From the IMG/VR virus record IMGVR_UViG_3300028048_001599: DNA of 64,000 nt; one strand, 5' to 3'. The position numbers and the translations under genes are program-made. The stretch's first letter is position 1; each line of letters begins with the position of its first letter. The notes beneath the pieces are model-generated. The model was not told where the DNA came from, made no database searches, and was given only the letters and a program-made list of their open reading frames with translations. Of the stretch, positions 67 through 64,000 are shown one piece after another. The stretch is from a virus (lineage: Duplodnaviria > Heunggongvirae > Uroviricota > Caudoviricetes).

Positions 67-1206
67 ATGACAACAGCGAACGTGACAATTCTTGTAGACT
101 TGGGTAACTCTGAGACAAGGGCAGAGTTAGTCTACATGGGAAAAAGTGTAACAATTTCAGTTCCTAATAGGTTTTATGAACTGAAACCTAACTATTTAAT
201 TCCTGAGGAATACCGTAACAGTGATTCGACTGTATTCTGTAATGACGGTATCTACCTAGCTAACGGTGAGCTAGTAGCTATAGAGTTTCCAAAGAGGGGT
301 CTTGCTCCGATTGGCTTTAGCGACAAGTCATCGCAGATTACATCAAAGTATAGTATTATACTTCTTATGATTAAGGCAATAAATAAAATCAGTGGTGACA
401 TTGGTGCTAAAGCATCAGATATAAACTGGGTGTTTAATATTGCAGTTTTACTTCCACCGTTTGAACAGGACAAACGAACAAATGACCAACCGAGCGGTAA
501 AGAAGCTATGATTGACCTTATTCGTTCCATTACACAGATTAATAGTGTATCACCCGTAAAATACAGTGTTCCTATTGCGATTAAGGAAATCAAAGTATTA
601 CCTGAAGGTGTTGTAGCATTTACAGCGGCTATGTTTAAGCTTGAAGACGGAAAGATAAACATAAATACTGATAATCAGAAGTACAAGCAGGGGTACTGTA
701 TAGTACTCGATATTGGTGCAGGGACAACCGATATGGTAGTTGTCCGTGACGGTAAGTTTATTATGTCTACAAAGGAGACTTTTAGAAAAGGCGGAAATCT
801 TGTGGAGTCCACTTGTAGAACATTGATTAGACGTAAGTATAATGTATCTCCCTCAGATATGAAAGAAATAATAGAAACAGGGGTATACCATCACGCTAAT
901 GATACTCTAATTGTTGATGACCTGTTGGATGAGGCTAAAAAAGACTACGCTGAAAATGTACTTCAGGATATTATAGCTTACCTCGGTGAGAAAGATATAC
1001 CTGTTCAGGAATTGAGGGGTGTTCTTACTGTAGGTGGTGGTTCACTTCCTACAATGCGAAATGGTGTAGTAGTTAGTGAGCCTATGTCAGCACCTCTTGT
1101 AGCTCTACTTAAACAGTTTTCACCGTCAATTGAACAGATAAAGTTGGACTCTAATCCACGTTATGCAAATCTTGACGGGTTGCATATAATGTCTACAGCA
1201 TGGTAA
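67..1206 (+). CDS. parM: ParM/StbA-family actin-like ATPase (plasmid segregation)
   Basis: Actin-fold motifs: phosphate-1 VDLGNSETR, connect-1 LPEGVVA, phosphate-2 VLDIGAGTTD, adenosine VGGGS, C-terminal NPRYANLDG; RBS AAAGGA upstream. Confidence 0.85.
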   Translation: MTTANVTILVDLGNSETRAELVYMGKSVTISVPNRFYELKPNYLIPEEYRNSDSTVFCNDGIYLANGELVAIEFPKRGLAPIGFSDKSSQITSKYSIILLMIKAINKISGDIGAKASDINWVFNIAVLLPPFEQDKRTNDQPSGKEAMIDLIRSITQINSVSPVKYSVPIAIKEIKVLPEGVVAFTAAMFKLEDGKININTDNQKYKQGYCIVLDIGAGTTDMVVVRDGKFIMSTKETFRKGGNLVESTCRTLIRRKYNVSPSDMKEIIETGVYHHANDTLIVDDLLDEAKKDYAENVLQDIIAYLGEKDIPVQELRGVLTVGGGSLPTMRNGVVVSEPMSAPLVALLKQFSPSIEQIKLDSNPRYANLDGLHIMSTAW

Positions 1207-1218
1207 GGGGGTAGTGAT

Positions 1219-2754
1219 ATGATAATCATTATAGGTAGTTCAATATCTGAGGATAAATTGCCAACATTTTCAGAGTTCAAAATTATTGAAGGTGCAGCAG
1301 AAGCAAAGATGACGCTCAGACTCACAAATAATCCTACTGCAGTTTTTGTTCATGAATCACTTGCAAAAGATTTGAATACACCGCTTGTATCAAAGGCAAT
1401 TCGTGATAATTTTGTTTACTTCTCAAATGATAATGACCTCTTAAAGAAGATTTCTGGTATCTCAGATGAAGATAATAGTAATAATGAGGCTAAACAGGAT
1501 ACAGTTAAGGAAACTCCAGCTAAACCTGTGGAAGTTCCGAAGAAACAGGATAAACCGACTGTAATCGTACCTCCTGCGTCTACTCCTGCACCTGCTACCG
1601 CTGTCGTTAGTGAACCGGCAAAACCAGTTCCGGCAGATGTCAAGAAGGAAACAGGGGTAAAACCGGGGGTTACTTCACAGGAGAACAAACCAGTAGTGAC
1701 TAATGTAAGTACTCCTGAAACAAAACCTGTTGTTTCAACATCGATTGACGATGGTATAACTGAGATAGATGAAACTGACGATGATGTTTTCTCAAACACA
1801 TTTAAGATTCCTATGTCAATCAACGGCAGTTATGATGCTATGGCTGCTAAATTAAAAGCTAAGGAAGAACAGTTATCACAGTTCCAGCAGATGTTTACAT
1901 CTAAGTGCGAAGAATATGACACGATGATTCGTGAACAGGACGAAAGCACAGCACAGATAATCAAGACTTATGAGAACAAGTTGAAGGAAGCTTCTACTGC
2001 ATTTAATAAGTTGAAGAACGATTATTCAAAAGCAATGTCAACCACTGGTAAATATCATGTATATGCTGAAAAGACAAAAGGTGTTCTAAAAGAGGGGTTT
2101 GCACCTGCTGAGAAGGAAGCTATTCAGAGTCTTGGTCTTGACCTTTGTATCATGTGTACTGCAGGTGATGTTACGGATATGCATTTTATGATGCAACAGA
2201 ATATTGAAACATTTAAGGAAGATTATGTATTCATCGATTTTACAGGTACACATTTCTTTGATACTATGTATCAGACTAATTTAAGTGGTGCACTCCGTCT
2301 GTTTAATTTTGTATCACAGGATGAGCTTACATCTCTTAAGAATAGTTTCTACCATAAGGAAAAGGCTGATATAATCGCAGAATATAATTTCCATGATATT
2401 ACATTCCTCGATAGTGATTGGGTAACATTCTTTAAGAACCTTAAAATAATGTTCCCTGACCGTAAGATAATACTTCTATTCAATAGTATTTCAAGTTTTT
2501 CGGTTCTTTACACACTCTCAAAGTTGGCTACAATATTTAAGGCTTATGTGCATCTGCGTTGTTCGTATTTTTCAATTCAGAATACATATACAAGACTTCG
2601 TCTTGTACCAGCAAGTAGGGGTATCAAACTTGTTGCTACTTACTACTTCGATGACGTTAAGGATATTATTACAGAAGTAGGTAAAAAGTATGAGATAAAG
2701 ACAAGTACTGATATATTGTCACTGTCTACCATAGAAAATAGACTTAATAAGTAA
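1219..2754 (+). CDS. Hypothetical protein: Pro/Thr-rich linker, coiled coil and possible degenerate MinD/ParA-like C-terminal domain
   Basis: 511 aa ORF 12 nt after parM; heptad region ~aa 205-275; YVFIDF strand but no intact Walker A. Confidence 0.6.
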   Translation: MIIIIGSSISEDKLPTFSEFKIIEGAAEAKMTLRLTNNPTAVFVHESLAKDLNTPLVSKAIRDNFVYFSNDNDLLKKISGISDEDNSNNEAKQDTVKETPAKPVEVPKKQDKPTVIVPPASTPAPATAVVSEPAKPVPADVKKETGVKPGVTSQENKPVVTNVSTPETKPVVSTSIDDGITEIDETDDDVFSNTFKIPMSINGSYDAMAAKLKAKEEQLSQFQQMFTSKCEEYDTMIREQDESTAQIIKTYENKLKEASTAFNKLKNDYSKAMSTTGKYHVYAEKTKGVLKEGFAPAEKEAIQSLGLDLCIMCTAGDVTDMHFMMQQNIETFKEDYVFIDFTGTHFFDTMYQTNLSGALRLFNFVSQDELTSLKNSFYHKEKADIIAEYNFHDITFLDSDWVTFFKNLKIMFPDRKIILLFNSISSFSVLYTLSKLATIFKAYVHLRCSYFSIQNTYTRLRLVPASRGIKLVATYYFDDVKDIITEVGKKYEIKTSTDILSLSTIENRLNK

Positions 2755-2766
2755 GTTTAAGGAGGG

Positions 2767-3630
2767 TTGACAGTGGGTGAAATAAAGCGGGTGAGTGTTA
2801 GTCTTAAAGTTGATTCAAGTGATGAACTTTATTGGTCTTTAATACAACCACTGCAACAAAACCGTCAGTTAGCAAGTTTTCTTGTAACTTTACTTCAGGC
2901 TTACAAAGATGACGGTGATGTTCATGATTTAGTAGACACATTCGCTAATGAAAATAGTGGTGTAGCAAAATTAAGGGGTCACTTGGAAAACCTTATTGAC
3001 TTACAGGCTAAGGCTACAAGATTTGCGGAGGACGTTAATGATTCACTCGGTGGGGGTAATAACGAAAGTACTATTGAGAATTTTTTTGATACCGAGGATG
3101 TTGAGGATGATTCTATTAGTGCTGAACAAGGGGTTCAGGACAGTCAAACAGGTCAAGTTGTTGTTAAGCCTGCAGGTGTTGTAAATAGACCAGTTGATGC
3201 TTCTAAAAAGACTAAGAGTAATAGTTCTGCACTTGCAAAACCTGGTGAATACATTCCAAGTCAGAGCATAATCAAAGCGGTATTGAAACGTCTTGATGAT
3301 GTAGAGGACACTTTGAAAGTAATAAAATCTGTTGTACATGTCCAAGATACAGAGGTAAGCAGAGCTGTTGAAAACTCTGTTGAAAATGTTGAAAATATGT
3401 CAGAAGTTGATGATATTAAGGATACAGGCAAAGAACCTGTAATATCTGAAGTACCTGATGAAGTCATGGAGTTGTCCGATAAGAAAACAGAGGTATCCGA
3501 GGTTTCCGAAGTACCTGAGATCGACAATAATCAGTCTGCAATAGCTAAACAGACAACTGTAGTTGAGGACGATTCACAGAAGTACCTTAAAAGTATGATG
3601 GACGACATATTTAAAGATAGTGGTTTATAA
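2767..3630 (+). CDS. Putative ParR-like adaptor (N-terminal ribbon-helix-helix-like region, acidic disordered tail)
   Basis: RBS AAGGAGG before TTG; N-terminus KRVSVSLKV then two helices (ELYWSLIQPL, QLASFLVTLLQAY); lies in the parM operon. Confidence 0.45.
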   Translation: MTVGEIKRVSVSLKVDSSDELYWSLIQPLQQNRQLASFLVTLLQAYKDDGDVHDLVDTFANENSGVAKLRGHLENLIDLQAKATRFAEDVNDSLGGGNNESTIENFFDTEDVEDDSISAEQGVQDSQTGQVVVKPAGVVNRPVDASKKTKSNSSALAKPGEYIPSQSIIKAVLKRLDDVEDTLKVIKSVVHVQDTEVSRAVENSVENVENMSEVDDIKDTGKEPVISEVPDEVMELSDKKTEVSEVSEVPEIDNNQSAIAKQTTVVEDDSQKYLKSMMDDIFKDSGL

Positions 3631-3653: not shown

Positions 3654-4610
3654 ATGAGTACAAATGGACAGCGTTATATTTTAATTGACTATAATCATAT
3701 GGCTTATAAGTTTTTCTATGGGGCACAGCCTTTAAGTTCCGTAGTAAATATAAACGGTGTTGATACGATTGTAGACACCACAATAGCTTACGGTACTATC
3801 AGAGCCTTGAATAATTATGGTCAAAGGGGTAAATACTATATCGGTATTTGTTACGAGGGTGGCTCAAAGTTTCGTAAAGAATATTTTAGTGGTTCAACAA
3901 CCGAGGGTTATAAAGGAACACGTAAGTCGATGGATAATAAAATGAAGGCAGCTATTGACGTTTCAATTGATTTACTTGCTAAGTGTGGTGCCGCGCAGTA
4001 TCGTTGTTTGGGTTACGAGGCTGATGATATGATTTATTCTATTGTAAAGCGTATCAAGGCAGTTGATAAAACAACACCGATTGATATTATCACAGGTGAT
4101 GGGGATATGTTACCACTTGTAGATGAACAGGTGTCTGTATTTATGAAAGGTACTCGCACTTTTGCTTTTCCGGGTGCAAACGAATACAGGGGGTATTATC
4201 AGGTAACTCCTGAGAGCTGGGAACAATATCTCAAAAATACTTCTGCTTATAAGGATTATCTCATTCCGTATAATTCAATGTTACTTTTTAAGCTTATGAA
4301 GGGTGATAAGGCAGATAATATACCTGCAGTTACACGAGGATACGGTGGTAAAGGTTACTCAGCACTTATGCAGAAAATGCTTAATGACGGTATTGATTTT
4401 TCCGAAGTATTCCGGTATGGCGTAGACTTCGATGAAACAATACGTCCTGTGTTAAAGTACTATTTTGATACAGATACAATTGATAAGATGAAATGGATAT
4501 ACGGGGGTATGAACCTTAGAAATTTCGAGGGTGACATTGCTCCTCTGAAGCAACTTCCAATAGATAAAGTTCACGTTGTATATTCATCGATAGGTATTAA
4601 TAAAATTTAA
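3654..4610 (+). CDS. Stand-alone 5'-3' exonuclease / flap endonuclease (PolA N-terminal domain family)
   Basis: Motifs ILIDYN, FRKE..YKGTR, YEADD, IITGDGDM, GDKADNIPAV.GYG (helix-3-turn-helix). Confidence 0.9.
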   Translation: MSTNGQRYILIDYNHMAYKFFYGAQPLSSVVNINGVDTIVDTTIAYGTIRALNNYGQRGKYYIGICYEGGSKFRKEYFSGSTTEGYKGTRKSMDNKMKAAIDVSIDLLAKCGAAQYRCLGYEADDMIYSIVKRIKAVDKTTPIDIITGDGDMLPLVDEQVSVFMKGTRTFAFPGANEYRGYYQVTPESWEQYLKNTSAYKDYLIPYNSMLLFKLMKGDKADNIPAVTRGYGGKGYSALMQKMLNDGIDFSEVFRYGVDFDETIRPVLKYYFDTDTIDKMKWIYGGMNLRNFEGDIAPLKQLPIDKVHVVYSSIGINKI

Positions 4611-13110: not shown

Positions 13111-13530
13111 TTAGATTACAATAACAAATTCTCTGGTATTGACATTATACCCTAATTTGTAGTCTGTATTGTGGTCGGAGTTGTACTTGTCGAGTAACTC
13201 AAAGATTGGGTGAATTTTAGCTGTACTGGTATTTGATTTCTGTGTTGATAAAATAATCGTTTCAATAACAGGGGTATCTACGTCGTTTATAACCCATGTT
13301 CTATCAAGACATACGATATTTAATACTTCCTGTCCATCTTCAACAATTGTCTGAATTGGGAGGACATTGCACTTAGTCGTTGCTACTTTTTTATCCTGTA
13401 GCACATTGTAAAGTTTTGCTCTGTTAATAAGATAGTTGTCGATGTTATTGTCATACTCGTTTTCGTGACAAATAACAAAGATATTAGGCTCAGTAAGGGG
13501 GTATAGACTTTTGTTCTTAGTGTTTGACAT
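13111..13530 (-). CDS. Hypothetical protein
   Basis: 139 aa ORF, RBS AAAGGAG on minus strand, terminator downstream. Confidence 0.7.
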   Translation of the reverse strand: MSNTKNKSLYPLTEPNIFVICHENEYDNNIDNYLINRAKLYNVLQDKKVATTKCNVLPIQTIVEDGQEVLNIVCLDRTWVINDVDTPVIETIILSTQKSNTSTAKIHPIFELLDKYNSDHNTDYKLGYNVNTREFVIVI

Positions 13531-24876: not shown

Positions 24877-24995
24877 ATTTAGAAACTAATACATTTGTAG
24901 TTCGCATAAAAGGGGTATTATGGCCTTAGCATTATTGATTACATTATTGATAGTATTAATACATAGAATAAAAAAGAGCTATTTTTAACCTAAAT

Positions 24996-26318: not shown

Positions 26319-26338
26319 TTCAAATGACATCGACAGAT
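26211..26338 (+). ncRNA. TnpB omegaRNA (reRNA): scaffold to 26318 plus flanking guide
   Basis: ACCGTGGGACACACGG stem, GCTCG..CGAG pairing, terminal hairpin and TCAC end; predicted guide TTCAAATGACATCGACAGAT. Confidence 0.7.
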
Positions 26339-26543
26339 CAACTCCTTAGGTGGCGATATTATGTTTATTAGAAGGTTTAGAGATTGGATAAAAGTTCAGA
26401 AGGTAAGAAAGCGCCATTATCATTAAGAATAATAGGTACAATTTTATGTATAATACAGTGATGTAAGTAGTTTGAGGGCATTCTTTTCTAAGTAATTTTC
26501 ATAAATCATGATTATCAGTATATATTTCATTGGGGGTGTAATA

Positions 26544-26867
26544 ATGAAGGAGTTTATAATGAAGCATTTAAATAGTATAGCAGACAAACTTATATTATTT
26601 TGTGAACATTGTGAATCAAGAGATAAAGCAAGGTCAGAATCCAAAACAAGAGCATGGTGTAGACAGCATAGAATTGGGGTAGTTATTGCATTACAATTGT
26701 TTAAACTCTGCATACTTATAAGCTGCATAGACATATTATTTTTACCGATTTCTTTTAGTATAAGACTTATAATATTATCATTTTACGGAATACTGGGAAT
26801 ATATGCAGCATACAGAGCAGAGAATGTAATAAACGATGTGAAAAACATAAAAACGAATAGGAAATAA
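26544..26867 (+). CDS. Small two-TM membrane protein
   Basis: RBS GGGGG before MKEFIMK; two C-terminal hydrophobic helices. Confidence 0.6.
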   Translation: MKEFIMKHLNSIADKLILFCEHCESRDKARSESKTRAWCRQHRIGVVIALQLFKLCILISCIDILFLPISFSIRLIILSFYGILGIYAAYRAENVINDVKNIKTNRK

Positions 26868-45797: not shown

Positions 45798-45811
45798 TTA
45801 TTGTAGTCGTA

Positions 45812-45908
45812 GAATTGCCCAGAATCGTTTCTAAGGCGATTTTAGGGTCAGAGGGGAGTAGTTTCATAGGTTAGTAAAAAGTGGCTCAGAAAGGCTCTCA
45901 GGCAATTT
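45812..45908 (+). repeat. Imperfect-palindromic intergenic element, related copy at ~17015-17095
   Basis: Shared TAAGGC.(A/T)TTTTAG and AAAA.TGG.TCAGAAAGG.T blocks at 49-50 nt spacing; AATTGCC...GGCAATT terminal arms. Confidence 0.55.
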
Positions 45909-45949
45909 TACGAATATTGAAAAAATTTCACAAAAAGGAGTATTATATT

Positions 45950-46483
45950 ATGATTAAAGAATTTTATGATAGGATAGCGGTTAATGGGAGTGTACCTGTA
46001 GAAACTCTCGTAGAAATGACACAAAATGGGGTACTTCAAATAAGAAAAGCTGAAGACGCAGTATTTACTATTGCGGAGGTTGCAAAGATATTTGATAAGG
46101 ATTCTCGTACTGTTGCTCGTTGGGTTGAAGAAGGAAAAATAAAAGCAATAAATGGGGTAACAAGTAAAGTAATACCTGCAAAAGAACTTGAGCGTTTTTA
46201 TGAAACAATGGCAGTTTCAAAGAGTAAGACTTGTATTTATGTTCAGGCTGATACTGTTTCTGAAGTCAATGAAAATGTGAATAGAATAGTTGAAAAAATA
46301 GGGGTAAATAAATACCGCTGTAATATATTTGCTGACATTGACGGTAATGATGGTTTTGAAGCACTTTTAAAGTTCCTTATAAAGTATAAAGGTATCGTAT
46401 ACACTAATGTTTCTCTTGTAGACAAGGGTGAATATATAGGTTTAATTTTATCTGTAACAAATACCACAGTTCAGTTGATATAA
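45950..46483 (+). CDS. MerR/excisionase-type HTH fused to a degenerate serine-resolvase fold (IS607 TnpA-like, catalytically dead)
   Basis: FTIAEVAKIFDKDSRTVARWVEEGKIKA HTH; IYVQAD in place of IYARVS; IFADI and GFEALL at the expected positions; RBS AAGGAG. Confidence 0.65.
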   Translation: MIKEFYDRIAVNGSVPVETLVEMTQNGVLQIRKAEDAVFTIAEVAKIFDKDSRTVARWVEEGKIKAINGVTSKVIPAKELERFYETMAVSKSKTCIYVQADTVSEVNENVNRIVEKIGVNKYRCNIFADIDGNDGFEALLKFLIKYKGIVYTNVSLVDKGEYIGLILSVTNTTVQLI

Positions 46484-46601
46484 TGTCTAATAAGTAAAGA
46501 ACAAAAATGGGGTATTTTGACTTAAATATTTTGTTTTAACATGTTATTTTGTTTTATACTTGAAGTAATAATTAATAAATAAATTTTTGGAGTTGATTCA
46601 A

Positions 46602-48545
46602 ATGCTAACAAAGCAAAAATTAAAGCAGTTAACATTGTGTTCTATGACTTCTGAGATTATCAATGATTACAAGCGTGCCGCTATGGAGTTGATTGTAAAT
46701 TGTACTGGCGACCTATCCTTATTTGATTTTTATGGTATGGAAGGTTCTCAAGGTACTATTGCTCAGATGTTAGCAAATTATGGGGCGCAGAGCTTATCTG
46801 CTATGGTAAATCAGAGTGGGTCAGATTTTGTAGTTCAAGGTAGTTCTCAGGCACTTACGGCTCTCGGTGCATTAAACAGTATTGCTGTAGTGTACTATCC
46901 CGATGAAAAGGACATGACAAAGATTAATACTGCTTTATGTACTGCAAACTGTAATTTATTCTCGACACTTACAGGTATGGGTGCAATTCAAGGGGTAACA
47001 AAAGGTGCTGAAGATAGAAAGCTTAATACAACAATAAGTAGGCTTTCAATACCTACGATGAAATCGGTATCAGGAACAAAGGCAAATGTTTTTAAAGATA
47101 TTTTATACGGAAACAAGAATAAACAGTTGGTTTATTCTGGACCTCTGCTCAAGTTTGGTGATGTCGATTCTAACGTTATTGAGTTTTCATACACAAACTG
47201 TAATGGTATTCCGATTGAATCTGCATTGTTTGTACCGTTGGTATTCTACTTTATTCTTGAAGATATTTTCTTTGATGTGTTTACTACCGATGGGCATAAA
47301 GGTATGACTTCAGCTGCCATTGCTACTTCTGTTGAGAAGTCGAAGAAGTTATTGAAGTTGCTTGCAGATGATAAACGAACAACTAATGGGGTATGGAAAT
47401 CACTTCCAGTTGCTCGTGACCGCTCAATAACTCTTTCAGAAAATGTTCTGCGTAAAGTTTATGGTAAGGAAACCGATGAACTTGTTCAGAAGATTAATAG
47501 AATCAAGCCACAACTTGGTTTTACTTTATCTCTGTTGAAGTTCTCATTCTATGATTTGCGTGGTGCTTATGACTCTTATGAGCCACAACGGATTGATCCA
47601 TTAACATTTAGATGTTTATCCGACTATTCAAAGAAACAGTTTACTGAGGATGTTGGCGTAATACGTTCAACATCGAAATATCCGAAGTTTGTTCTTGTAA
47701 GTATATACCGTGAAAGCGTAGATAATTTAATGACAAAGAAGATTGATGCACCTTCATTCTGGCAGACATTACACATCCCTGAAGATGTACTTGCAAATGC
47801 GAAATTTGGAGATGAGCATAAAAAATATGTTTATGGTGCATTTAAGTTCACTTCTTCCGATTTATATATGTTGATGTCAAAGAACGCTGCAATATTTGGT
47901 GATATTGATGGTCGTGCAAAACAGCGTTTAGCACAATTTAATATGAGCAACTTTAAAAGAGTAAAGATATCACTTTCAGAAGATTGTACTAAGCGTCTTG
48001 TAGAAGTAAAGAAGGCTCTTAACGCAGGCGTATGTTTTGTAGATTATCAAAACAAAAAAGGTGGGGTAAATAGACATACTCTCACCACCAATGAAACAAT
48101 CATTAAAAAGATATACGGTGATGACTATGTAGGAAAATACGGTTCATTGAAGAAACGTATTGAAACTATGCGTTACGGTATTGAAAATGCAAAATCTCTC
48201 GCAGATATCAACTACTATATCAATAAAACAGGCATAATGGATTTAGCAGGTATTGAGGTTAAAGATAAGTACGGTAAAGTAATCGGAACTAATCCGAATT
48301 TCCCAGTGATATCTGAGGATTTTGAAGCATACAAACGTGAGTTGAATAGTTACCTTGATAATCTTTGTGGTCAATCAGGGGTATCTCGTTCAAAACCTGA
48401 TGATATTCCACCTGAAAAACAAACAGTATTCGGGGTATCTCTTGCTGCAACACCTAAAAACAAATCCGCCGACATCGAGGGTAGTAAGGATTTTTATTCG
48501 TTCCTTGAAATCGGAGGCATAGTTGGTTTGTATGTATTACGTTAA
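46602..48545 (+). CDS. Hypothetical protein with WYL-like/SH3 beta-barrel segments; paralog of 42259-43653
   Basis: FVDYQNKKGGVNRHTLTTN motif; LYMLMSKNAAIFG resembles LYLYMADRPEIFG. Confidence 0.6.
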   Translation: MLTKQKLKQLTLCSMTSEIINDYKRAAMELIVNCTGDLSLFDFYGMEGSQGTIAQMLANYGAQSLSAMVNQSGSDFVVQGSSQALTALGALNSIAVVYYPDEKDMTKINTALCTANCNLFSTLTGMGAIQGVTKGAEDRKLNTTISRLSIPTMKSVSGTKANVFKDILYGNKNKQLVYSGPLLKFGDVDSNVIEFSYTNCNGIPIESALFVPLVFYFILEDIFFDVFTTDGHKGMTSAAIATSVEKSKKLLKLLADDKRTTNGVWKSLPVARDRSITLSENVLRKVYGKETDELVQKINRIKPQLGFTLSLLKFSFYDLRGAYDSYEPQRIDPLTFRCLSDYSKKQFTEDVGVIRSTSKYPKFVLVSIYRESVDNLMTKKIDAPSFWQTLHIPEDVLANAKFGDEHKKYVYGAFKFTSSDLYMLMSKNAAIFGDIDGRAKQRLAQFNMSNFKRVKISLSEDCTKRLVEVKKALNAGVCFVDYQNKKGGVNRHTLTTNETIIKKIYGDDYVGKYGSLKKRIETMRYGIENAKSLADINYYINKTGIMDLAGIEVKDKYGKVIGTNPNFPVISEDFEAYKRELNSYLDNLCGQSGVSRSKPDDIPPEKQTVFGVSLAATPKNKSADIEGSKDFYSFLEIGGIVGLYVLR

Positions 48546-48579
48546 GTATAAGGACTTTCATTTGTGTCTTTCTCCTTTC

Positions 48580-48618
48580 TGGGCTTACCTTGTGATTTGG
48601 TAAGCCCATTTGTTTTTT
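48580..48618 (+). terminator. Rho-independent terminator
   Basis: TGGGCTTACC/GGTAAGCCCA stem followed by a T-run. Confidence 0.75.
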
Positions 48619-48690
48619 ATTTTATAGAAATATTAAAAAAATATATAACTTATTGTTATAATATAGTAATAATGAAAGGTGGTAAAACCA

Positions 48691-50448
48691 ATGAAAAAAT
48701 TTATAAGTTCAGCACTCGCAATATCAATGTTACTTGGGGTAGTTTCATTGACAGGTTGTCAAAAAGAACCTGACCCATTGGAGCCTGTTAAGTATAAGAC
48801 TGTTCCAATGAAATACAGTAATGAAATTGCTCAAAAATCAAGCGTGGATACTGTTGTACGTTATTTCTATCTTATAAACAACGGTAAATTTGAGGAAGCA
48901 AATAAAATGATTGATAGGACAGATTTGTCTATATGCACTCCTGAAATTCTTGAATCACTTTATTCAAGAGTTGAAAATTATCAGCTTGGTGATTATAACC
49001 GAATTGTAGATGTAACCGTTGATGAAAATGTTGCTCATGTTACATTTATAAATCAAACTGATGACGACCATTCATTTGATGTATCATATGAGGAAGAAGA
49101 AATACCCGTATGGCTTGGTTCAACTACACCGTATGTTTCGGATGTGGGGTATGCATCGACTTACGAGATATCTGATTTGAATGAAGATGGGATAATTGAT
49201 GAAACCGATATGATGTGGGAAGATAACCCAGAGTTAAATCCTGATTATGAACCGCCTGAGTCTGTTGAATCATCATTATCAAGTGGACAAACAACATCTT
49301 CTGGGGCAAGAGTACCTTATTACTCTACAGGTATTGTTGAAGCACAACCCATGGCTATTGATATAGAAGATATTAAGAAAACGAGTAACTCTGAAACTTC
49401 GGGTGACAAAAAATCAAGTGAGAGTTCTACGGGTGATAAAAAGGGTGAAAAATCTGAAGTTTCCAAAAACTCAGAGGGGTCTAATGTATCAAAAGATAGA
49501 AAGACAAGTAAGACATCTAATGATAAAAATTCAAGTCAAGCATCGAATGATGAGGACTCAAAAAATTCATCTGTTTCAACTGCGGATAGTGAAGTAACTT
49601 CAAATGTAGAGCCATCAGAGGACGAAAATGGGCTTATTGATGGTATGCCCGCAGACATTTTTAAAGAAGAAACATTAACGGGGTATAAGACTTATACTAT
49701 GGATATTAACATTAATGTTGTTGATAACAATTATAAAGTAAAATTACCAGAATCAATGACAACTGACACTCGTTTAATGATAAAAGTTCCCGAAGATATG
49801 TACATCAAAGTAGGTGATCTTGAGTTAGATAAAACAATGATGAACCTTGAGGACTTTTATGTAATCAATAAGTTACCAAAGGTTGAAAAATTTGATTTAA
49901 CACTTGAAAACCTTATTTTGGGTTCTTCTAAGAAAACAATAGACTTGACAGAGCGTGTATATTACATATATTCAAACCTTGTTCCTACAAGAGAAATGAA
50001 AGACGCAGTATTGGGGTATATAAAACCTGCGATGCAATCTTTATATAATAATATGCTAAAAGGTACTGACTTTTCAAGTTCTTCATTTGCAAAAGATTAC
50101 GTATCAAACAATGGTAATATAAAGGGCATTAAGTTATATTACGATATGTATATAAATAGTAATATTAACTCAACAGTAAATAAGTCATACGAGGTAATAA
50201 GTGCAAAATTTCCACCTACTGATGATGAAGAAAAAGACAATTATGAAGTAAAGGCTGACCAATTTAGAGTAACTTCATACTATTATGTCGATGTTCCTGT
50301 TATTCTTCAAGTTCGTTCTAATACAGAGGATGCTGGTGATAAAGAAATAACAATGACAGAGATTTGTGGTATGGTTAGGCTTACAAAGCAGGATGGTAAA
50401 TGGTACATATGGGATATTTCTAAAGAACTAATGTTGTCAGATTATTAA
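48691..50448 (+). CDS. Lipoprotein with low-complexity insert and an EF-hand/dockerin-like motif
   Basis: MKKF..SLTGC lipobox; DLNEDGIIDETD Ca-binding-like loop; C-terminal LTKQDGKWYI. Confidence 0.75.
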   Translation: MKKFISSALAISMLLGVVSLTGCQKEPDPLEPVKYKTVPMKYSNEIAQKSSVDTVVRYFYLINNGKFEEANKMIDRTDLSICTPEILESLYSRVENYQLGDYNRIVDVTVDENVAHVTFINQTDDDHSFDVSYEEEEIPVWLGSTTPYVSDVGYASTYEISDLNEDGIIDETDMMWEDNPELNPDYEPPESVESSLSSGQTTSSGARVPYYSTGIVEAQPMAIDIEDIKKTSNSETSGDKKSSESSTGDKKGEKSEVSKNSEGSNVSKDRKTSKTSNDKNSSQASNDEDSKNSSVSTADSEVTSNVEPSEDENGLIDGMPADIFKEETLTGYKTYTMDININVVDNNYKVKLPESMTTDTRLMIKVPEDMYIKVGDLELDKTMMNLEDFYVINKLPKVEKFDLTLENLILGSSKKTIDLTERVYYIYSNLVPTREMKDAVLGYIKPAMQSLYNNMLKGTDFSSSSFAKDYVSNNGNIKGIKLYYDMYINSNINSTVNKSYEVISAKFPPTDDEEKDNYEVKADQFRVTSYYYVDVPVILQVRSNTEDAGDKEITMTEICGMVRLTKQDGKWYIWDISKELMLSDY

Positions 50449-50469
50449 TAAATAAGGAGGCAGGTATCG

Positions 50470-51855
50470 GTGGAGAAAGACTATGTTAATTTCTTGGAGA
50501 GTTGTTTAAACAAGTATGATACCGACTCTTGGAATGGTGATGGACTTACAATATTAGATACTTTAGGTTCTTTATCAGAACCAGTTCGTAAAGGTAATAT
50601 TCAAGTTTTTCGTAATCAATCAATTGATATATTTGGTAATGACCGTTTAGTAGCAACACCCGACTCATTGGGGGTATCTGAAGAAGAATATGAATCACTA
50701 AAACAAAGTATGTCATTTTTAATGGGATATGACCCCTGTTGTGGAGATGATACAAAATTAGAAATTGCTGACACTTCACAGTTTGATTCTTACTCAGAAA
50801 GAGACCTTGAGGAAGAACCATATACAATTGAAGAAATGATGGAAGATGAATCTGAGTTTCCAAATACATATGAGGAATATGACGAGGACGATGAAGATGA
50901 TGAAGATAGAGAAGAGTCCGATTATAACTTTTCTAATGATGAGGACGATGAAGATGATATTGTCGATGATGAAGACTTTTTAGATGTTGAAAGTACAGAT
51001 GATGATTTTCCAGACAACTATGAGGAACTCGATGACGATGACTTTGATGATTCTGATGATGACATCTCTGAGGATGAGGACTTTTTAGATGTTGAAGACA
51101 CTGACGATGATTTTTCAGATAACTATGAGGAAATTGATGACGACAGTGAGGAATCTGAGGATAGTGAAGAATACGATGATACTGATGAATTTCCTGACAA
51201 CTATGAGGAAATAGACGAAGACGAGGAAGATGAAGATGACTTCGACTTCCCAGATGAGGACTACGAGGAATCCGATGATGAGGACTCGGAGGAAGATGAA
51301 GATGACTTCGACTTCCCAGATGAGGACTACGAGGAATCCGATGATGAGGAGGAAGAATTTGACGACTTTGATTTTCCAGATGAATACGAGGAGTTAGACG
51401 AAGAAGATGAGGAAGAGGACGATGACTTTAAGTCACCAGATGAGGACTATGAGGAATTGGATGATTTTGAGGATGAAGAGGATGAGGACTTTGATTTTCC
51501 TGACGAGGACTACGAGGAGTCTGATGATGACGAGGAGTCTGAGGAGGATGACGAGTTCAGGTCACCTGATGAAGACTTGGATGATTTTGAGGACGAAGAT
51601 GACGAGGACGATATTCCTCGAAATCAACATTCCAGTGACTTAGGCGAATTTGATGGACGTCCACAAAATAATATTAATACAAACGGTTTAAATAGGAATA
51701 CGGGTGGTATAAATTTATCACCATCTCCTATAATTAATAAAGAAAGTAGTTCAGATAAATTAGCAAATAGTCTTGTAAAGGTTCTGAAAGTACCTGGGGC
51801 AACCAAAAGTTTCTTTGGTAGGTTTATTATTTCGGACGATGATACAGAAGATTGA
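50470..51855 (+). CDS. Extremely acidic (Asp/Glu-rich) repeat protein
   Basis: About 270 aa of DDFDFPDEDYEESDD-type repeats; RBS AAGGAGG. Confidence 0.8.
   Translation: MEKDYVNFLESCLNKYDTDSWNGDGLTILDTLGSLSEPVRKGNIQVFRNQSIDIFGNDRLVATPDSLGVSEEEYESLKQSMSFLMGYDPCCGDDTKLEIADTSQFDSYSERDLEEEPYTIEEMMEDESEFPNTYEEYDEDDEDDEDREESDYNFSNDEDDEDDIVDDEDFLDVESTDDDFPDNYEELDDDDFDDSDDDISEDEDFLDVEDTDDDFSDNYEEIDDDSEESEDSEEYDDTDEFPDNYEEIDEDEEDEDDFDFPDEDYEESDDEDSEEDEDDFDFPDEDYEESDDEEEEFDDFDFPDEYEELDEEDEEEDDDFKSPDEDYEELDDFEDEEDEDFDFPDEDYEESDDDEESEEDDEFRSPDEDLDDFEDEDDEDDIPRNQHSSDLGEFDGRPQNNINTNGLNRNTGGINLSPSPIINKESSSDKLANSLVKVLKVPGATKSFFGRFIISDDDTED
51223..51350 (+). repeat. 66-bp-period coding duplication in the acidic protein
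   Basis: GAGGAAGATGAAGATGACTTCGACTTCCCAGATGAGGACTACGAGGAATCCGATGATGAGGA at 51223 and 51289. Confidence 0.9.
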
Positions 51856-51916
51856 TAACTACATTCTTGGTACATAAACCAACAAAAAATAAATAAAAAG
51901 TAAAGGTGGATAACAA

Positions 51917-52909
51917 ATGTTTACAGCAAAAGAAATGTTCGGGGTAACTGTTAAGGGTGCCCTCGAAAAGCGTGTTCAGACAATTGACTTTAATGGTGCA
52001 GACGCTGACGGTGTTGTTGAGAAAACAAACGCTGTTATAGGTGAAAGTAGACTTATGGCAGATGTTCCGGATTACCTTTCTGTAATCACACTTCATTATG
52101 ATACAGATGGTACTTCTGTTGATTCTGTTAAGCTTACTCTCAAAACTCGTGTAAGAGATGCAATTAATGACGACAATCTTAAGATTTCTACAATTATTCC
52201 TTATAATGATAGTTATAAGGAGACACTTGTTAACTTTGTCGCAAGATGGGTTGACGGTTACTTTGTAGCATTTAAGGCTCAGTCTAATGCTGAAGCACTT
52301 AATGAAGTTATTGCTCCGCTTTGTGGAGAAATTAAGGTATCTTTCGCATACAGTGACCTTGTAATTGTTTCTATGACAAACGATTCTGTAGTTCTCGGTC
52401 TTTCCGCTGAGGCACTTGCATACGCTACTGAACTTGATATTTTTAGTTCTATTGCATATGTAAGTTCTAAGGCACGTGAGGTTCTTGGTGCTTCACTTCA
52501 GACTCTCACAACTCCGTATGAGGTACTTACAACAAAGAATCGTATTCTTAAACAGCTTGGTGTATATACAAGAGTTGGGGTATCAAAACTCCTTAAGAAA
52601 ACATATAAGAAGAATATCAGCACAGCTGCAGCAGCACTTGAAGCACTCAATGCTAAGAGGGCTAAGGAGTTCCCGAATACCGACCCGATTGTTGAGTCAC
52701 CTGTTAGTAGATTTGAGTACACAGATGAAGCAGGTTCATTCTTTGGTCTTGTTAAGTGTGTCAAGTCTGAGGCAGTAAAGGAAGGTACACCTGTTGCACT
52801 TGACAAGGATGGTTACTCATATATAATTATTCTGTCACCGTTCGATAAGAAGATGCAGGTTCTTTCTGATGAGGACACAGCAGTTCTTCTTGAGTCACAG
52901 ATTGCATAA
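51917..52909 (+). CDS. Hypothetical protein
   Basis: 330 aa ORF with RBS AAAGGTGG and strong codon bias (CTT, GCT, AAG). Confidence 0.8.
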   Translation: MFTAKEMFGVTVKGALEKRVQTIDFNGADADGVVEKTNAVIGESRLMADVPDYLSVITLHYDTDGTSVDSVKLTLKTRVRDAINDDNLKISTIIPYNDSYKETLVNFVARWVDGYFVAFKAQSNAEALNEVIAPLCGEIKVSFAYSDLVIVSMTNDSVVLGLSAEALAYATELDIFSSIAYVSSKAREVLGASLQTLTTPYEVLTTKNRILKQLGVYTRVGVSKLLKKTYKKNISTAAAALEALNAKRAKEFPNTDPIVESPVSRFEYTDEAGSFFGLVKCVKSEAVKEGTPVALDKDGYSYIIILSPFDKKMQVLSDEDTAVLLESQIA

Positions 52910-52937
52910 AAATAAAATTCCTCATAAGTGGGGTATC

Positions 52938-55181: not shown

Positions 55182-55213
55182 ATATCCCGATATGAAAATA
55201 TCGGGATATTTTT
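55182..55213 (+). terminator. Rho-independent terminator
   Basis: ATATCCCGATAT/ATATCGGGATAT followed by a T-run. Confidence 0.7.
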
Positions 55214-55254
55214 ATTTATAATAGAAGTTAGACAATTCAGAGGTGTTCAAAGAC

Positions 55255-58200
55255 ATGAGTAAATTAATTAAGGACTTTATGGAAAAGTGGTCTACACGTG
55301 GTAGTGAAAAATCAGAGTCACAATCGTATTGGATTGAGTTATTACAAACATTGGGGGTACAGAAACCCACTAACTTTATTCAATTTGAGAAGACTGTTAA
55401 GGATGGTAGGAACACAATTTATATTGATGGTTATATTCCAAAAACGAAGGTTCTAATTGAAATGAAGTCATCAACAATAAATCTTGACGATAAACTTGTA
55501 CAGTCTAATGGGGACAAACTCACTCCATTTGAACAAGCACAGAAGTATATTGTGCATCTTCCTCGTTCAGAGCATCCACGTTATGTTGTAACATGTAATT
55601 TTAAGGAAATTCGTGTATATGACATGGAGAATCCTAATAATGCACCAGTAAGTATATTTATCAACGAGTTGAATACACAGTCTTACCGTCTTTCATTTTT
55701 AATCAAAGAGGACAATGTACACCTTGAGCGTCAGGTCAAGGTATCAAAGGAGGCTGTTCAGCTTATTTCTAAATTATACGATGCATTTTCGAAGCAATAT
55801 AAGACGATTAACGAGGAGACATCAAGAAATCTCAATATTCTTTGTGTACGTATAGTATTTTGTTTATTTGCAGACGACAGTGGATTGTTTGAAAAGAACC
55901 AGTTCATCAACTTTATTCAAAATAGCAACGTAGGTCTTGCGCGTCAAAACCTTATAAACTTATTTAAGGTACTTGATACAGATGAAAAAGACCGTGACCC
56001 GTATGACACATCAGGTATAAATAGTTTTCCATACGTAAATGGTGGACTTTTCAAAGAAGTTATAACAATACCAACTATTACCGAGGACATGTTAGAAACC
56101 CTTGTCACAGTAGCTGAGTTTGACTGGTCACAGATTAGTCCTACGATATTCGGTTCTATTTTTGAGAGTACATTGTCTGCAAAGCGTAGACACGAAAATG
56201 GTATGCACTACACGTCGGTAGTCAACATTCATAAGGTAATTGACAATTTGTTCCTTGACGAGTTCTACGCTGAGTTTGACCGAATAAGGGGTATAGAGCG
56301 TAAGACACTTCGTAGTTTGGAGTTAAGGAAATTTCAGATGAAGCTTGCTACATACAAGTTTCTTGACCCTGCCTGTGGTTCAGGTAACTTCTTGACTGAA
56401 ACTTATACATGTATTCGTAGACTTGAAAATGAAATTATACGTGAAATCCGTAAGTGTGACACATCACTTTTTCCATCCACCGAGTCACCTATTAAGGTCA
56501 ACATTCATCAATTCTATGGTATCGAGATAGATGATTTTGCAGTATCCGTAGCAAGAACAGCACTATGGATAGCTGAGGCACAAATGTTTGAAGAAACAAA
56601 GGACATTGGTTTTGATATTGACTTTTTCCCACTGAAGTCAAACAATAACATTGTAGAAGGTAACGCACTGCGTATTGATTGGGCGGAAGTCGTAGGAGGG
56701 GTAGACACATTAAATTACATTATAGGTAACCCACCGTTCTTAGGTTCTAAGAAAATGTCAAAAGAGCAGCATAGTGAAGTTAATTCTATTTTTGATAAAA
56801 AAGAATGGAGCAGATCGGGAAATTTTGATTATGTACTTTGTTGGTTTAAGAAAGCTGTCGATATGATGTTAAAGAATAATAAGATAAAGGCGGCACTTGT
56901 AGCAACTAATTCAATATGTCAAGGTGAGCCAGTAGGGACTTTTTGGAAAAGGGCAATAGGTTTAGGTATTAATATCAATTTTGCATATACATCATTTTTG
57001 TGGGATAACGGGGCAGATTTGGAGGCGTCAGTTTTTGTTGTTATTGTAGGGTTTGATACTAATAATGAAAGTAACAAATATATAATAGACAGTAATGGTT
57101 TTGTTTCAGAAGCTAACAACATAAGTCCATATTTAATAGATGCTGACGATGCAATAGTTGAAACTACAAATGTTCCATTATGTAATGTACCTAAGATGTC
57201 GTTTGGTTGTATGGCTTATGACGATGGATATTTGTCAAAAATCAGTGTAGAAGATAAAAAGGATATATGTAATAAATATCCTGAGTCAGAGAAATATTTT
57301 AGACGTATATTAAGTGGTTTAGAATATTTGCATAATAAGGAAAGATGGTGTTTATGGTTAGAAGATGTGGAAATTGATGAATTAAAAGGTATACCTCCCA
57401 TATATGAGCGTGTGGAGAGTGTTAGAAGTTATAGATTAAGTAGTAAAAGCAAAGCAACATTTGAAGCAGCTCATACACCTACGTTATTTTTAATACGTAA
57501 GCAGCCAAGGAGTAATTATTTAGCTGTTCCTATGGTGTCATCTGAGAAAAGAAAATATATACCAGTAGAGTATATGACAAATGATGAAATTGTATTAAAT
57601 ACGATTTATTATATTGAGGATGCACCAAAATGGTTATTTAGTATAATGACAGCTGACTTACATACAATTTGGGTTCACTTGGTATGTGCAAGGATGAAAA
57701 AAGATATTCATTATTCAAGCACAATATGTTATAATGCATTTCCATTTATCACACCAACACCTGAAGAAGAAAACAAACTTACAGAACTTGCAAATAACAT
57801 ATTACAAGCTCGTGCAAATCATCCTAATAAATCACTTGCAGACTTGTACGACCCTGAAAATATGCCTGACGACTTGCGTAAAGCACATAAAGAAAATGAT
57901 ATCTACGTGCGTAGTCTGTATGGTTTTAAACCCGACGATACAAAGGAGCACATTCTTGCAGGACTTCTCACTTGTTATAAAGCACTGTCTACAGGTCAAA
58001 TTCCCGAAGGTTGGATAAATGTTAAGAAAACAAACTTTGTCAATAAGGAACTTGAGAAACCTGTGACACGTGCAATTAGTATAATAAGTAAGGCTAAATC
58101 TATTGTAGACCATAGAATATCTGAACTAAAACCTACAGATAATACATATGGTATGTTATCTTTTATATCGAATAAACTTAAAAACTTTTACAGTATTCTC

Positions 58201-58806
58201 ACAACTGTAGATTTCACTCCGAAAAATATGAGGAAAATAGTAACAGGGGTAGAAAAGATAGTATCACTTGCTGTTCCATCTAACTCAAAGTCACTTCAGG
58301 ATACTGCTAAGTCCTTTGAAGACATCTTGAATAATTATGAAGCCGACATTGATTATGATTACAGTACTCGTCTACTTAAACTTGTGTCTATGTTGGACTC
58401 ACTTGTTCAGATAGATACACCTGTATCGATGTCTGACTTGCGTTCAATATTAGGTATCGAATCGGAGGATGGTATAACAAATAAGTACTTCCTTAGTGAC
58501 GGGGTATCGGGTTTATTACTTGAAGATATTCAGACAGACCTTAACACTATAACACTTACCGTATCTGATGGTAGTCCTGTTCATGATTATTTATCACAGT
58601 TAATTCAAGGTAAAGCTCTTAATATGTCAACATCAACTATTTTATATGTAGCTCAGGACACCGGTTCTCTTGATTGCTTAGCTTCAAAATACGGGGTAAC
58701 AATAGTTATAACCGAAGAAAAAGGCAATAAAATCACAGCAACTATAGTAATAAATGGCAAAATCAGTGATGTATTGTTTTACTTAGACAATAATAAAGAA
58801 ATGTAA
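55255..58806 (+). CDS. MmeI-like Type IIL restriction-modification enzyme (m6A MTase + nuclease) with extra C-terminal domain
   Basis: SEKSESQSYW, IDGY..VLIEMKS nuclease motif, FPYVNGGLF, GMHYTS, motif I FLDPACGSGNFL, motif IV GNPPF, SLADLYDP..MP.DLRKAH. Confidence 0.9.
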   Translation: MSKLIKDFMEKWSTRGSEKSESQSYWIELLQTLGVQKPTNFIQFEKTVKDGRNTIYIDGYIPKTKVLIEMKSSTINLDDKLVQSNGDKLTPFEQAQKYIVHLPRSEHPRYVVTCNFKEIRVYDMENPNNAPVSIFINELNTQSYRLSFLIKEDNVHLERQVKVSKEAVQLISKLYDAFSKQYKTINEETSRNLNILCVRIVFCLFADDSGLFEKNQFINFIQNSNVGLARQNLINLFKVLDTDEKDRDPYDTSGINSFPYVNGGLFKEVITIPTITEDMLETLVTVAEFDWSQISPTIFGSIFESTLSAKRRHENGMHYTSVVNIHKVIDNLFLDEFYAEFDRIRGIERKTLRSLELRKFQMKLATYKFLDPACGSGNFLTETYTCIRRLENEIIREIRKCDTSLFPSTESPIKVNIHQFYGIEIDDFAVSVARTALWIAEAQMFEETKDIGFDIDFFPLKSNNNIVEGNALRIDWAEVVGGVDTLNYIIGNPPFLGSKKMSKEQHSEVNSIFDKKEWSRSGNFDYVLCWFKKAVDMMLKNNKIKAALVATNSICQGEPVGTFWKRAIGLGININFAYTSFLWDNGADLEASVFVVIVGFDTNNESNKYIIDSNGFVSEANNISPYLIDADDAIVETTNVPLCNVPKMSFGCMAYDDGYLSKISVEDKKDICNKYPESEKYFRRILSGLEYLHNKERWCLWLEDVEIDELKGIPPIYERVESVRSYRLSSKSKATFEAAHTPTLFLIRKQPRSNYLAVPMVSSEKRKYIPVEYMTNDEIVLNTIYYIEDAPKWLFSIMTADLHTIWVHLVCARMKKDIHYSSTICYNAFPFITPTPEEENKLTELANNILQARANHPNKSLADLYDPENMPDDLRKAHKENDIYVRSLYGFKPDDTKEHILAGLLTCYKALSTGQIPEGWINVKKTNFVNKELEKPVTRAISIISKAKSIVDHRISELKPTDNTYGMLSFISNKLKNFYSILTTVDFTPKNMRKIVTGVEKIVSLAVPSNSKSLQDTAKSFEDILNNYEADIDYDYSTRLLKLVSMLDSLVQIDTPVSMSDLRSILGIESEDGITNKYFLSDGVSGLLLEDIQTDLNTITLTVSDGSPVHDYLSQLIQGKALNMSTSTILYVAQDTGSLDCLASKYGVTIVITEEKGNKITATIVINGKISDVLFYLDNNKEM

Positions 58807-63409: not shown

Positions 63410-63431
63410 CAAATAATTACACGTATAGTAT

Positions 63432-63467
63432 CAAGAAAACCAACGAGATAACTCGTTGGTTTTCTTG
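63432..63467 (+). terminator. Rho-independent (bidirectional) terminator
   Basis: CAAGAAAACCAACGAG-ATAA-CTCGTTGGTTTTCTTG perfect 16-bp stem. Confidence 0.8.
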
Positions 63468-63490
63468 GGGTATGACTGGAGGTGTTATCT

Positions 63491-64000
63491 ATGTACTTTA
63501 TTGTGGGAAAGAACATAGACTCGCATGGTGATTTACTTTCATATATTGTATCAGACGGTAATAATATAGCTATTGCACATATTAACGAAATATGTTCTCA
63601 ATTCAAATGTGGTAATTTACCTATGGTTGATAGTATAGATATGTATACAGGTGAAGTACATTTTAAAAACATAGATAACAAATTGTTGCCAACATATGAC
63701 TATGATAAATTGACCACAAATACATTGTCTGTACTAAAAATATACCATATGGGAGAAAAGCAAATAGGAGTAAAAATCTTAACACCTAAGTTGACTTTAT
63801 CAAACATTCGCATATTCGTATTAAAACGATTATTAGACACTCATAATATCAAGCTATTCAATGTAAAGATAGTGGACGGGGTAGTAATTCCTAAATTCGG
63901 TAAACTACCAGTTGAGGACGTGCTAAAATTACCTGAATGTATTACCTTTGAGTTTCATGAAATAACAGATGAAATAGTTACGGTGAAAGTAAACTCAGAA
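63491..64000 (+). CDS. Hypothetical protein, runs off the window end
   Basis: RBS GGAGGTG, ATG at 63491, frame open to 64000 (MYFIVGKNIDSHG...). Confidence 0.65.
   Translation, partial: MYFIVGKNIDSHGDLLSYIVSDGNNIAIAHINEICSQFKCGNLPMVDSIDMYTGEVHFKNIDNKLLPTYDYDKLTTNTLSVLKIYHMGEKQIGVKILTPKLTLSNIRIFVLKRLLDTHNIKLFNVKIVDGVVIPKFGKLPVEDVLKLPECITFEFHEITDEIVTVKVNSE

Follow-up and report, generated by a model that had tools for sequence, protein, structure and literature searches.

GGGGTA, a selected one-stranded hexamer of a giant rumen element and of plasmid pXO16, and its tentative reading as a dispersed priming signal

The hexamer GGGGTA was found to be a selected and almost strictly one-stranded word of a giant mobile element, which we met through a 64,000-nucleotide (nt) stretch of DNA classified as Caudoviricetes (IMG/VR record IMGVR_UViG_3300028048_001599; hereafter the window). 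An exact count gave 110 copies on the + strand (starts 690 to 63878) and none on the − strand, which bears out a preliminary description, made from the letters of the window, of roughly 100–110 copies and no TACCCC. The array is as follows.

690..63883, + strand: GGGGTA, 110 dispersed copies, mean spacing 580 bp, coefficient of variation (CV) 0.72, largest gap 1885 bp.

Dinucleotide shuffles of the window yielded 17.0 ± 4.2 copies, both strands summed, and 26 at the most. The 95 copies within + genes were compared with 12.8 ± 3.4 after codon permutation, and with 21.4 ± 3.8 (z 19) after a within-gene shuffle of synonymous codons, which keeps the proteins and a codon usage that already contains the contribution of GGGGTA itself. 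The enrichment thus survives the codon-preserving null that had been proposed as a check. Gly-Val dipeptides were spelled GGG-GTA in 60 of 117 cases, against 8.3 expected. As had also been described, the word occurs in all three codon phases (60, 21 and 14 copies) and in intergenic DNA (11 copies), at densities of 1.70/kb in + genes and 1.63/kb between genes. It ranked first among words of k=6 by strand skew and by a maximal-order Markov model. The 18 one-mismatch neighbours have 1–30 copies each, A comes next after GGGGT in 110 of 134 cases, the 7-mers and 8-mers containing the word are as frequent as predicted from the 6-mer, and the flanks hold ≤0.15 bit, with neither a consensus nor dyad symmetry. 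GGGGTA is hence exactly six letters long, and every position is specific.

G+C in the window is 33%, the G>C skew ranges from +0.07 to +0.31 without ever switching sign, and nearly all of the long open reading frames (ORFs) lie on the + strand. Because this strand is C-poor (CCCC, 8 copies), only about 2.5 TACCCC are expected; its absence, offered earlier as evidence of polarity, is true as a count and weak when taken alone, and polarity as such is weaker evidence than enrichment. This bears on the simplest explanation, a by-product of GC skew or of codon or dicodon usage. Strong skew and one-way genes do explain the rarity of TACCCC, but they predict neither the z of 19 over the synonymous shuffle nor a word whose one-mismatch neighbours are not enriched. 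An independent composition control was provided by G007, one of three records (G006, G007 and G008) obtained by a pattern search of viral contigs. This 76-kb record has GGGGTA at 102:0 (word strand to opposite strand, here and below) confined to 44 kb, whereas the adjoining 32 kb with the same +0.2 skew holds 2 copies. We regard the composition reading as refuted, and GGGGTA as a word under selection beyond composition or codon usage.

Whether the word belongs to the DNA strand or to the transcript is decided by a reverse-strand gene and by the copies near start codons, listed here.

13111..13530, − strand: the only well-supported reverse-strand gene, 139 aa, with its own ribosome-binding site (RBS) and a terminator-like hairpin downstream.
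1208..1213, + strand: GGGGTA as a Shine–Dalgarno (SD)-like sequence, 5 nt before the ATG at 1219.
13892 (before 13902) and 21370 (before 21378), + strand: further copies in SD position.

The reverse gene holds two GGGGTA on the + DNA strand (13271 and 13498), which are TACCCC in its own mRNA. Its protein has 13 homologue clusters at 83–100% identity. Four loci with a homologue were fetched (L138–L141), two of them relatives at 83–84% amino-acid identity; in all four the gene is the sole one opposing its neighbours, and TACCCC stands at nt 28 and 255 of its sense strand. The chance of two TACCCC in 420 nt is P ~2e-5 at the sense-strand rate of pXO16, a Bacillus plasmid described below. The earlier remark that GGGGTA stays on + inside a minus-strand gene is thereby extended to antisense copies conserved in four loci.

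An RNA-level role, as an internal SD-like or mRNA-stabilising word or as a non-template-strand signal for RNA polymerase, would agree with the placement of nearly all genes on the strand of the word, with the ability of GGGGU to pair with the anti-SD (by inspection of base pairing) and with the copies in SD position, which make up about 5% here (5 of 110) and 15% in pXO16 (100 of 658), many of the latter 3–7 nt upstream of start codons. Against it, the antisense copies are kept in the reverse gene at 4/4 loci, and the word is as dense between genes as within them and no sparser in a 4.4-kb pXO16 stretch without ORFs (8 copies), while the RBSs of the window are of the ordinary GGAGG type. Such a role is therefore close to refuted, and we read the SD-position copies of pXO16 as convenient placement. 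An SD-like function was rejected as a minority use contradicted by the antisense copies, and a reading in the manner of NusG/RfaH at ops sites was dropped as no NusG-like gene was seen in pXO16, G006 or G007. Since antisense copies are conserved, spacer density is equal and copies in SD position are few, GGGGTA follows the DNA strand and not the mRNA.

The position of the copies was examined further with the aid of relatives, for which a lipoprotein of the window serves as a lineage marker.

48679–50448: marker lipoprotein of a 550–610-aa family, lipobox ...SGC at residue ~27.
45809..52911, + strand: site-conservation block, 16/16 GGGGTA at the same positions in the relative L080.
24912..26676, + strand: 1.76-kb gap without GGGGTA, spanning the IS605-type tnpB 25116–26210.

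The spacing of GGGGTA is more even than chance: in the window, random placements reach a CV ≤0.72 at a frequency of 5e-5 and a largest gap ≤1885 bp at 0.004. The longest gaps free of the word are found in a repetitive adhesin gene, an RlaP gene and the IS605 insertion. The TnpB of this insertion (25116–26210) is 96% identical to copies in metagenome-assembled genomes (MAGs) of rumen Ruminococcus, which indicates that the insertion is recent. The proposal that the word is absent from the recent insertion holds for the tnpB gene and for the gap, with the qualification that one copy stands at 24912, just upstream of tnpB; the copy described inside the second tnpB, at 60322, is present.

In the block 45809–52911 (7.1 kb), nucleotide identity to L080 is 86% and any hexamer is kept at 44%, against all 16 GGGGTA; in the block 55043–57245, 3/3 are kept against 74% for any hexamer. 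Overall, 19/19 sites are kept at 86–91% nucleotide identity, and L080 has three extra copies which arose from near-words. At 65% nucleotide identity, 5/13 sites are common, compared with 10% for any hexamer, and the density of GGGGTA is upheld even where site positions differ between relatives. These alignments show purifying selection with slow turnover, as would be expected of a distributed signal.

Relatives of the marker lipoprotein were traced down to 41% identity, and all of them keep its gene within a syntenic block of orphan genes. The protein gave no Pfam or PHROG match and no tblastn match in plasmids, and JGI metagenome contigs contained no relative of it. Around four of the relatives that were traced, the contigs carry GGGGTA at 35:0, 23:0, 42:1 and 86:2, the last at almost 4/kb; the latter three counts belong to L081–L083, whose marker proteins are 41–53% identical.

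The DNA of the window sits on a 323,685-bp contig in ENA (ERZ27252073, k141_446481). The 31.9 kb upstream of the window was stitched from four fetched pieces, with an 11.2-kb overlap that is 100% identical, so that 95.9 kb in total was covered. Over these 95.9 kb GGGGTA occurs at 172:1 with no flip of polarity. At the very end of the contig (L145:1-770), ~31.9 kb upstream of window position 1, stand 55-bp direct repeats, two or more in number. Non-coding, AT-rich DNA (~650 bp) and a promoter-like region come next, and the third gene from this end encodes a UvrD/PcrA-like helicase. Every gene, together with 172 of the 173 GGGGTA, points away from this end. The repeats and AT-rich tract are a candidate origin, or else an assembly break of a circle or a linear end. 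The element turned up in 14 studies, in gut samples from cattle and sheep; the gut runs include metatranscriptomes, in which up to 72% of a 10-kb stretch was covered.

The whole window has no near match in phage or plasmid collections or in viral contigs. A distant counterpart was nevertheless found in pXO16 (pBTHD789-1, NC_018516) of Bacillus thuringiensis sv. israelensis, a 349,599-bp circle carrying GGGGTA at 658:5. Its copies number 13–26 per 10 kb all round the circle without a reversal of polarity, with a CV of 0.71 and a largest gap of 2071 bp, and 0 of 5000 random sets were as regular; G+C is 33% and the skew +0.20 throughout. Two of the genes that connect the window with pXO16 are the following.

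67..1206, + strand: actin-like (ParM/MreB-like) segregation protein, 27% identity (E 5e-24) to pXO16 (reverse complement) at 35.5 kb.
3654..4610, + strand: 5'-3' exonuclease (FEN-like) of the type that removes Okazaki primers, 36% identity (E 6e-47) to pXO16 (reverse complement) at 53.4 kb.

By tblastn, the actin-like protein, the FEN-type exonuclease, an adhesin and the orphan w18445 come in the same order in the window and in pXO16, and a UvrD-like helicase occurs in both plasmid and element at a position consistent with collinearity. The two resemble each other in the word itself, its density (1.9/kb in pXO16 vs 1.7/kb) and spacing, G+C, skew, one-way genes and size (350 vs about 324 kb). 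They differ in host class, Bacilli vs rumen Clostridia, in protein identities of only 25–36%, and in a Tad-type pilus ATPase cluster and an MmeI-family enzyme which the element adds. This comparison makes the element a distant, collinear relative of pXO16 and places it, as a member from the rumen, among giant plasmids of that kind. The proteins of both are mostly without an assigned function, and the one-way gene layout with mostly orphan genes was reported for pXO16, as was the lack of an identified relaxase or origin of transfer (oriT) (PMC9673590). No mention of GGGGTA on plasmids or phages was found in a literature search outside which the 2015 pXO16 sequence paper lies.

The preliminary description had proposed looking for a flip of polarity at the origin and terminus. 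None exists, either on the pXO16 circle or in the 95.9 kb of the element, and the absence of a flip on a complete circle sets GGGGTA apart from FtsK-orienting polar sequences (KOPS) and Chi on a bidirectional chromosome. It also bears on a translocase guide similar to KOPS and the SpoIIIE recognition sequences (SRS), which would steer an FtsK-like coupling ATPase of the transfer system. pXO16 does encode an FtsK/SpoIIIE-family ATPase, its transfer is fast (PMC6199540), and the missing relaxase and oriT (PMC9673590) leave room for such a guide. However, the DNA that pXO16 transfers is reported to be single-stranded (PMC6199540), and the polarity of a single strand requires no sequence to mark it; the plasmid also mobilises other plasmids lacking any such signal (PMC9673590). 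The word is moreover a 6-mer every 0.25–0.6 kb that never flips on the circle. KOPS and SRS are 8-mers many kb apart whose polarity flips at dif. We consider a translocase guide very unlikely.

The occurrence of GGGGTA in host-like DNA was surveyed with the reversed word as the control, in a set chosen by sharing of insertion sequences (ISs) or by phylum, the true host being unproven. Enrichment was seen at none of the 79 loci that surround the closest IS605 copies. In five IS-sharing MAGs the word is outnumbered by its reversed control, at 0.12–0.18 GGGGTA/kb on both strands together; densities of 0.13–0.17/kb and no polarity were seen in Butyrivibrio pCY360, a Listeria chromosome and the B. 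thuringiensis megaplasmid BTB_502p. Among 121 genomes across the phylum, the ratio of GGGGTA to the reversed control was 0.3–1.7, which is no enrichment; the range over these genomes, the five MAGs and Listeria was 0.08–1.07/kb with both strands summed. Nothing here suggests that any Bacillota chromosome uses GGGGTA as Chi or KOPS. The identical hexamer is found on pXO16 in Bacillus and on rumen Clostridia elements whose marker proteins are 41–86% related, and because pXO16 and the distant relatives share the word while host-like DNA lacks it, its reader seems to travel with the element. The idea of an element-specific motif of the DNA strand has thus stood up to the codon null, the reverse gene and the host-like genomes.

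The main rival to the reading favoured below is a Chi-like signal, which would tame host AddAB/RecBCD or a helicase-nuclease of the element and turn degradation into recombinational repair. GGGGTA is short, G-rich, one-stranded and co-oriented with presumed replication, as Chi is on chromosomes. The raw density in host genomes (~0.15/kb) is not below that of Chi in E. coli, which counts for this rival. Dense Chi has been documented in phages without Rec modules (PMC12315714), and G006, a phage with no recognisable recombination or replication gene (see below), would fit a host-encoded reader. On the other hand, no host-like genome tested (the five MAGs, Listeria, BTB_502p, pCY360 and the 121 genomes) over-represents the word; Chi is species-specific (PMC4614115), as with AGCGG in B. 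subtilis, whereas elements of Bacilli and of Clostridia carry one and the same GGGGTA. If copying went by strand displacement with the + strand displaced, the orientation of the word would also be unreadable to a nuclease entering the tail. We regard a Chi-like role as possible but doubtful.

The other carriers extend the range of the word. G006 is a 25.4-kb phage with GGGGTA at 57:0. Its genes encode a terminase, a portal, a tape measure, tail proteins, an endolysin, about ten small orphans and one helix-turn-helix protein; no replication, recombination or integration gene was recognisable, and BLASTP found no protein common to it and the giant elements. In G007, the word-bearing 44 kb (L131–L134; boundary ~32 kb in reverse-complement coordinates) starts at a tyrosine integrase gene, has two pXO16 homologues and often shows the word as CAGGGGTAGT, whereas the word-free part is a phage-like structural module distantly related to G006. 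G007 has the look of a giant element into which a prophage was inserted, or to which one was fused. The 57.8-kb contig G008 is poor in the word except for nine GGGGTA grouped within 4 kb (L137, ~48–52 kb, reverse-complement coordinates), which may be a local array and not genome-wide saturation.

A polar binding site of another protein of the element, such as a contra-helicase, a condensin or segregation loader or a site-specific nickase, was also considered. It would accord with a reader that seems to travel with the element, with the many proteins to which no function is assigned, and with the strict one-way order of genes, skew and word. No candidate protein is common to the giant elements and G006 at the BLAST level, however, and the word has no flanking context and no dyad symmetry, nor does the sequence indicate any specific protein. 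This explanation is judged unlikely.

Restriction was raised by the following gene.

55243..58806, + strand: MmeI-family type IIL restriction-modification enzyme, 1187 aa, complete and unusually long; 6 GGGGTA, normal density.

The gene is 91–96% identical in nucleotide sequence in L080. By tblastn it has no counterpart in pXO16, and it is not among the called genes of L081–L083. Recognition sites of this family have a penultimate A, which neither GGGGTA nor TACCCC has. The enzyme was accordingly rejected as the reader of GGGGTA. A restriction-linked orientation bias or a single-strand methylase target, by Type III-like escape or MmeI-family self-marking, would find a basis in this enzyme, and a one-orientation arrangement of sites is known from EcoP15I sites in T7. 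Nonetheless, avoidance would deplete one orientation; it would not raise the other 5- to 10-fold and space it evenly. Nor was a counterpart of the gene detected in pXO16 or among the called genes of L081–L083, which keep the word. We find this explanation hardly credible.

The reading that we favour, with a probability of about 0.35, is that a DnaG-type primase encoded by the element reads GGGGTA as a dispersed priming signal, on the strand that is lagging, displaced or transferred. Four functions had been offered at the outset: the primase option has moved ahead, while the translocase, host-Chi and methylase options have been weakened. The reader must act on single-stranded DNA or track along DNA, because the word is strictly one-stranded. 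We propose that the element is copied in one direction, away from the repeat array and AT-rich tract, since all genes, the G>C skew and GGGGTA point away from the contig end near the UvrD/PcrA-like helicase. GGGGTA would then lie on the template of discontinuous synthesis, that is, on the lagging-strand template or on a displaced or transferred single strand, and the DnaG-type primase of the element would initiate there. Taken 3'→5', the site would begin with a cryptic A; ATP would start the primer opposite the T, and CCCC would be copied from the four G to yield the primer pppACCCC, in parallel to T7 primase at 5'-GGGTC-3'. Selection would keep one copy per 0.25–0.6 kb and forbid gaps of more than ~2 kb, the scale of Okazaki fragments; such selection would be needed because the hexamer is rare by chance in AT-rich DNA (about one per 6 kb at 33% G+C).

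All characterised primases have a cryptic 3' base in their site and begin the primer opposite the base beside it, as in T7, where 5'-GTC-3' gives pppAC (PMC5737085). On inspection, 5'-GGGGTA-3' is compatible with this anatomy, though compatibility is all that inspection can give. The template specificity of a primase is determined by its zinc-binding domain, which can cooperate in trans with a catalytic domain that is separate from it, and class-specific trinucleotide recognition by DnaG has been characterised (PMC2978363). Candidate cognate parts, a CHC2 zinc ribbon and a DnaB-like helicase, are present in pXO16, which has its own replisome. The former is a stand-alone DnaG CHC2 zinc-ribbon protein of 190 aa (44 bits; L091:3139-3711, − strand), whose close relatives are found on B. 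toyonensis and B. cereus contigs of 111–360 kb. About 7 kb from the zinc-ribbon gene, L091:11072-15615 (− strand) holds the helicase gene next to one for a GyrA/ParC-like protein, with about ten paralogous orphan genes of 190–230 aa between the zinc-ribbon gene and this pair. pXO16 further encodes a Toprim_2 protein, FEN, the UvrD-like helicase and the FtsK/SpoIIIE-family ATPase; no Pol III alpha was found in it. The 4.4-kb stretch without an ORF ≥100 aa (L084:40088-44524) lies beside the Toprim_2 gene, has a normal density of GGGGTA and no Rfam or tRNA match, and may be a replication or control region. The element itself encodes a RecJ-like DHH protein and a UvrD-like helicase besides FEN.

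Several points weigh against the priming signal. The 96 kb of the element that were read (of ~324 kb) showed no primase gene, and neither did G006 or G007. In the T7 genome, the pentamers of its own primase occur at 39:55, 79:62 and 43:42, which shows neither polarity nor enrichment. G006 carries the word without a recognisable replication gene, so that its reader is either a host factor or borrowed. Only skew and layout indicate the direction of replication, and gene orientation is a confounder of the two. Finally, the DnaG of a Firmicute host prefers CTA/TTA over GTA, and for this reason the element would need a primase of its own. In T7 (L103+L104) the most strand-skewed pentamers were GCTGG, CTGGT and TGGTG, which are pieces of the E. 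coli Chi octamer; their skew is probably a codon-usage effect.

A bolder version of the priming signal would make GGGGTA a private password of replication. The primase-helicase of the giant plasmids would start the complementary strand only at GGGGTA, and small phages such as G006 would have written the word into their genomes to parasitise the replisome. We consider this version speculative and rather improbable. If it were true, copied DNA would need GGGGTA about every 0.5 kb, and the identity of a replicon would be coded in sequence and open to exploitation across unrelated mobile elements.

Further features were noted on the element. Upstream of the window by ~14.6–12.8 kb, an IS607-type unit (serine resolvase and TnpB; L143:4073-5901) supplies a third gene of the TnpB family besides 25116–26210 and 59783–60898. 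Among the early genes are those for a PARG-like protein (poly-ADP-ribose glycohydrolase family; L144:7066-7884) and a dUTPase/dCTP-deaminase-like protein (L144:4661-5101). A 1716-aa orphan protein matched nothing in a protein atlas.

The new results here are the reverse-gene test, the site-by-site conservation, the phylum-wide negative survey and the negative T7 calibration. To these are added the size of the element (324 kb) and its candidate origin and, in pXO16, a helicase and a zinc ribbon of the primase type. The word bends the coding of hundreds of genes, to the extent of half of the Gly-Val pairs. As a practical marker, GGGGTA separates native from newly acquired DNA, since the IS605 insertion and the prophage-like module lack it, and it flags contigs of this lineage in metagenomes. 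pXO16 can be cultured and transferred, so its reader can be sought directly.

Chi and KOPS are rare examples of genome-wide polar words with understood readers and both are host-chromosomal, whereas GGGGTA is private to a lineage of mobile elements. Similar to Chi and to the Chi-saturated phages LLS and P1 (Zheng et al. 2025, PMC12315714), it is short, G-rich, held in one orientation, selected and tolerated in coding DNA. Chi is, however, the word of a host enzyme and over-represented on the host chromosome, while GGGGTA is not enriched in the host-like genomes tested, is the same across bacterial classes, and shows a polarity of ~99%, even spacing and a 2-kb ceiling. With KOPS and SRS it shares a polar, G-rich and replicon-wide character, but it has no switch on a complete circle, is 10- to 40-fold denser and is absent from chromosomes; those are 8-bp duplex sites, and GGGGTA is exactly 6 nt with uninformative flanks. 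The single-strand origin (sso) of rolling-circle plasmids likewise gives a strand-specific start of complementary-strand synthesis on a displaced or transferred strand, but it is one structured region of 100–300 nt read by host RNA polymerase or a primosome, whereas GGGGTA is a bare hexamer in hundreds of copies. Primase sites, namely 5'-GGGTC/TGGTC/GTGTC-3' of T7 gp4, the trinucleotides of DnaG and 5'-(G/C)GGA-3' of AtTwinkle (PMC5737085), are read on the single-stranded template of the discontinuously made strand, as GGGGTA would be under the favoured reading, and its anatomy is compatible with theirs: a cryptic 3' base, a pyrimidine to template the initiating purine and a run of G to template C. 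They are 3–5 nt long and not visibly selected in genomes, whereas GGGGTA has six letters, and a six-letter primase site enforced over a replicon of 324–350 kb would be new.

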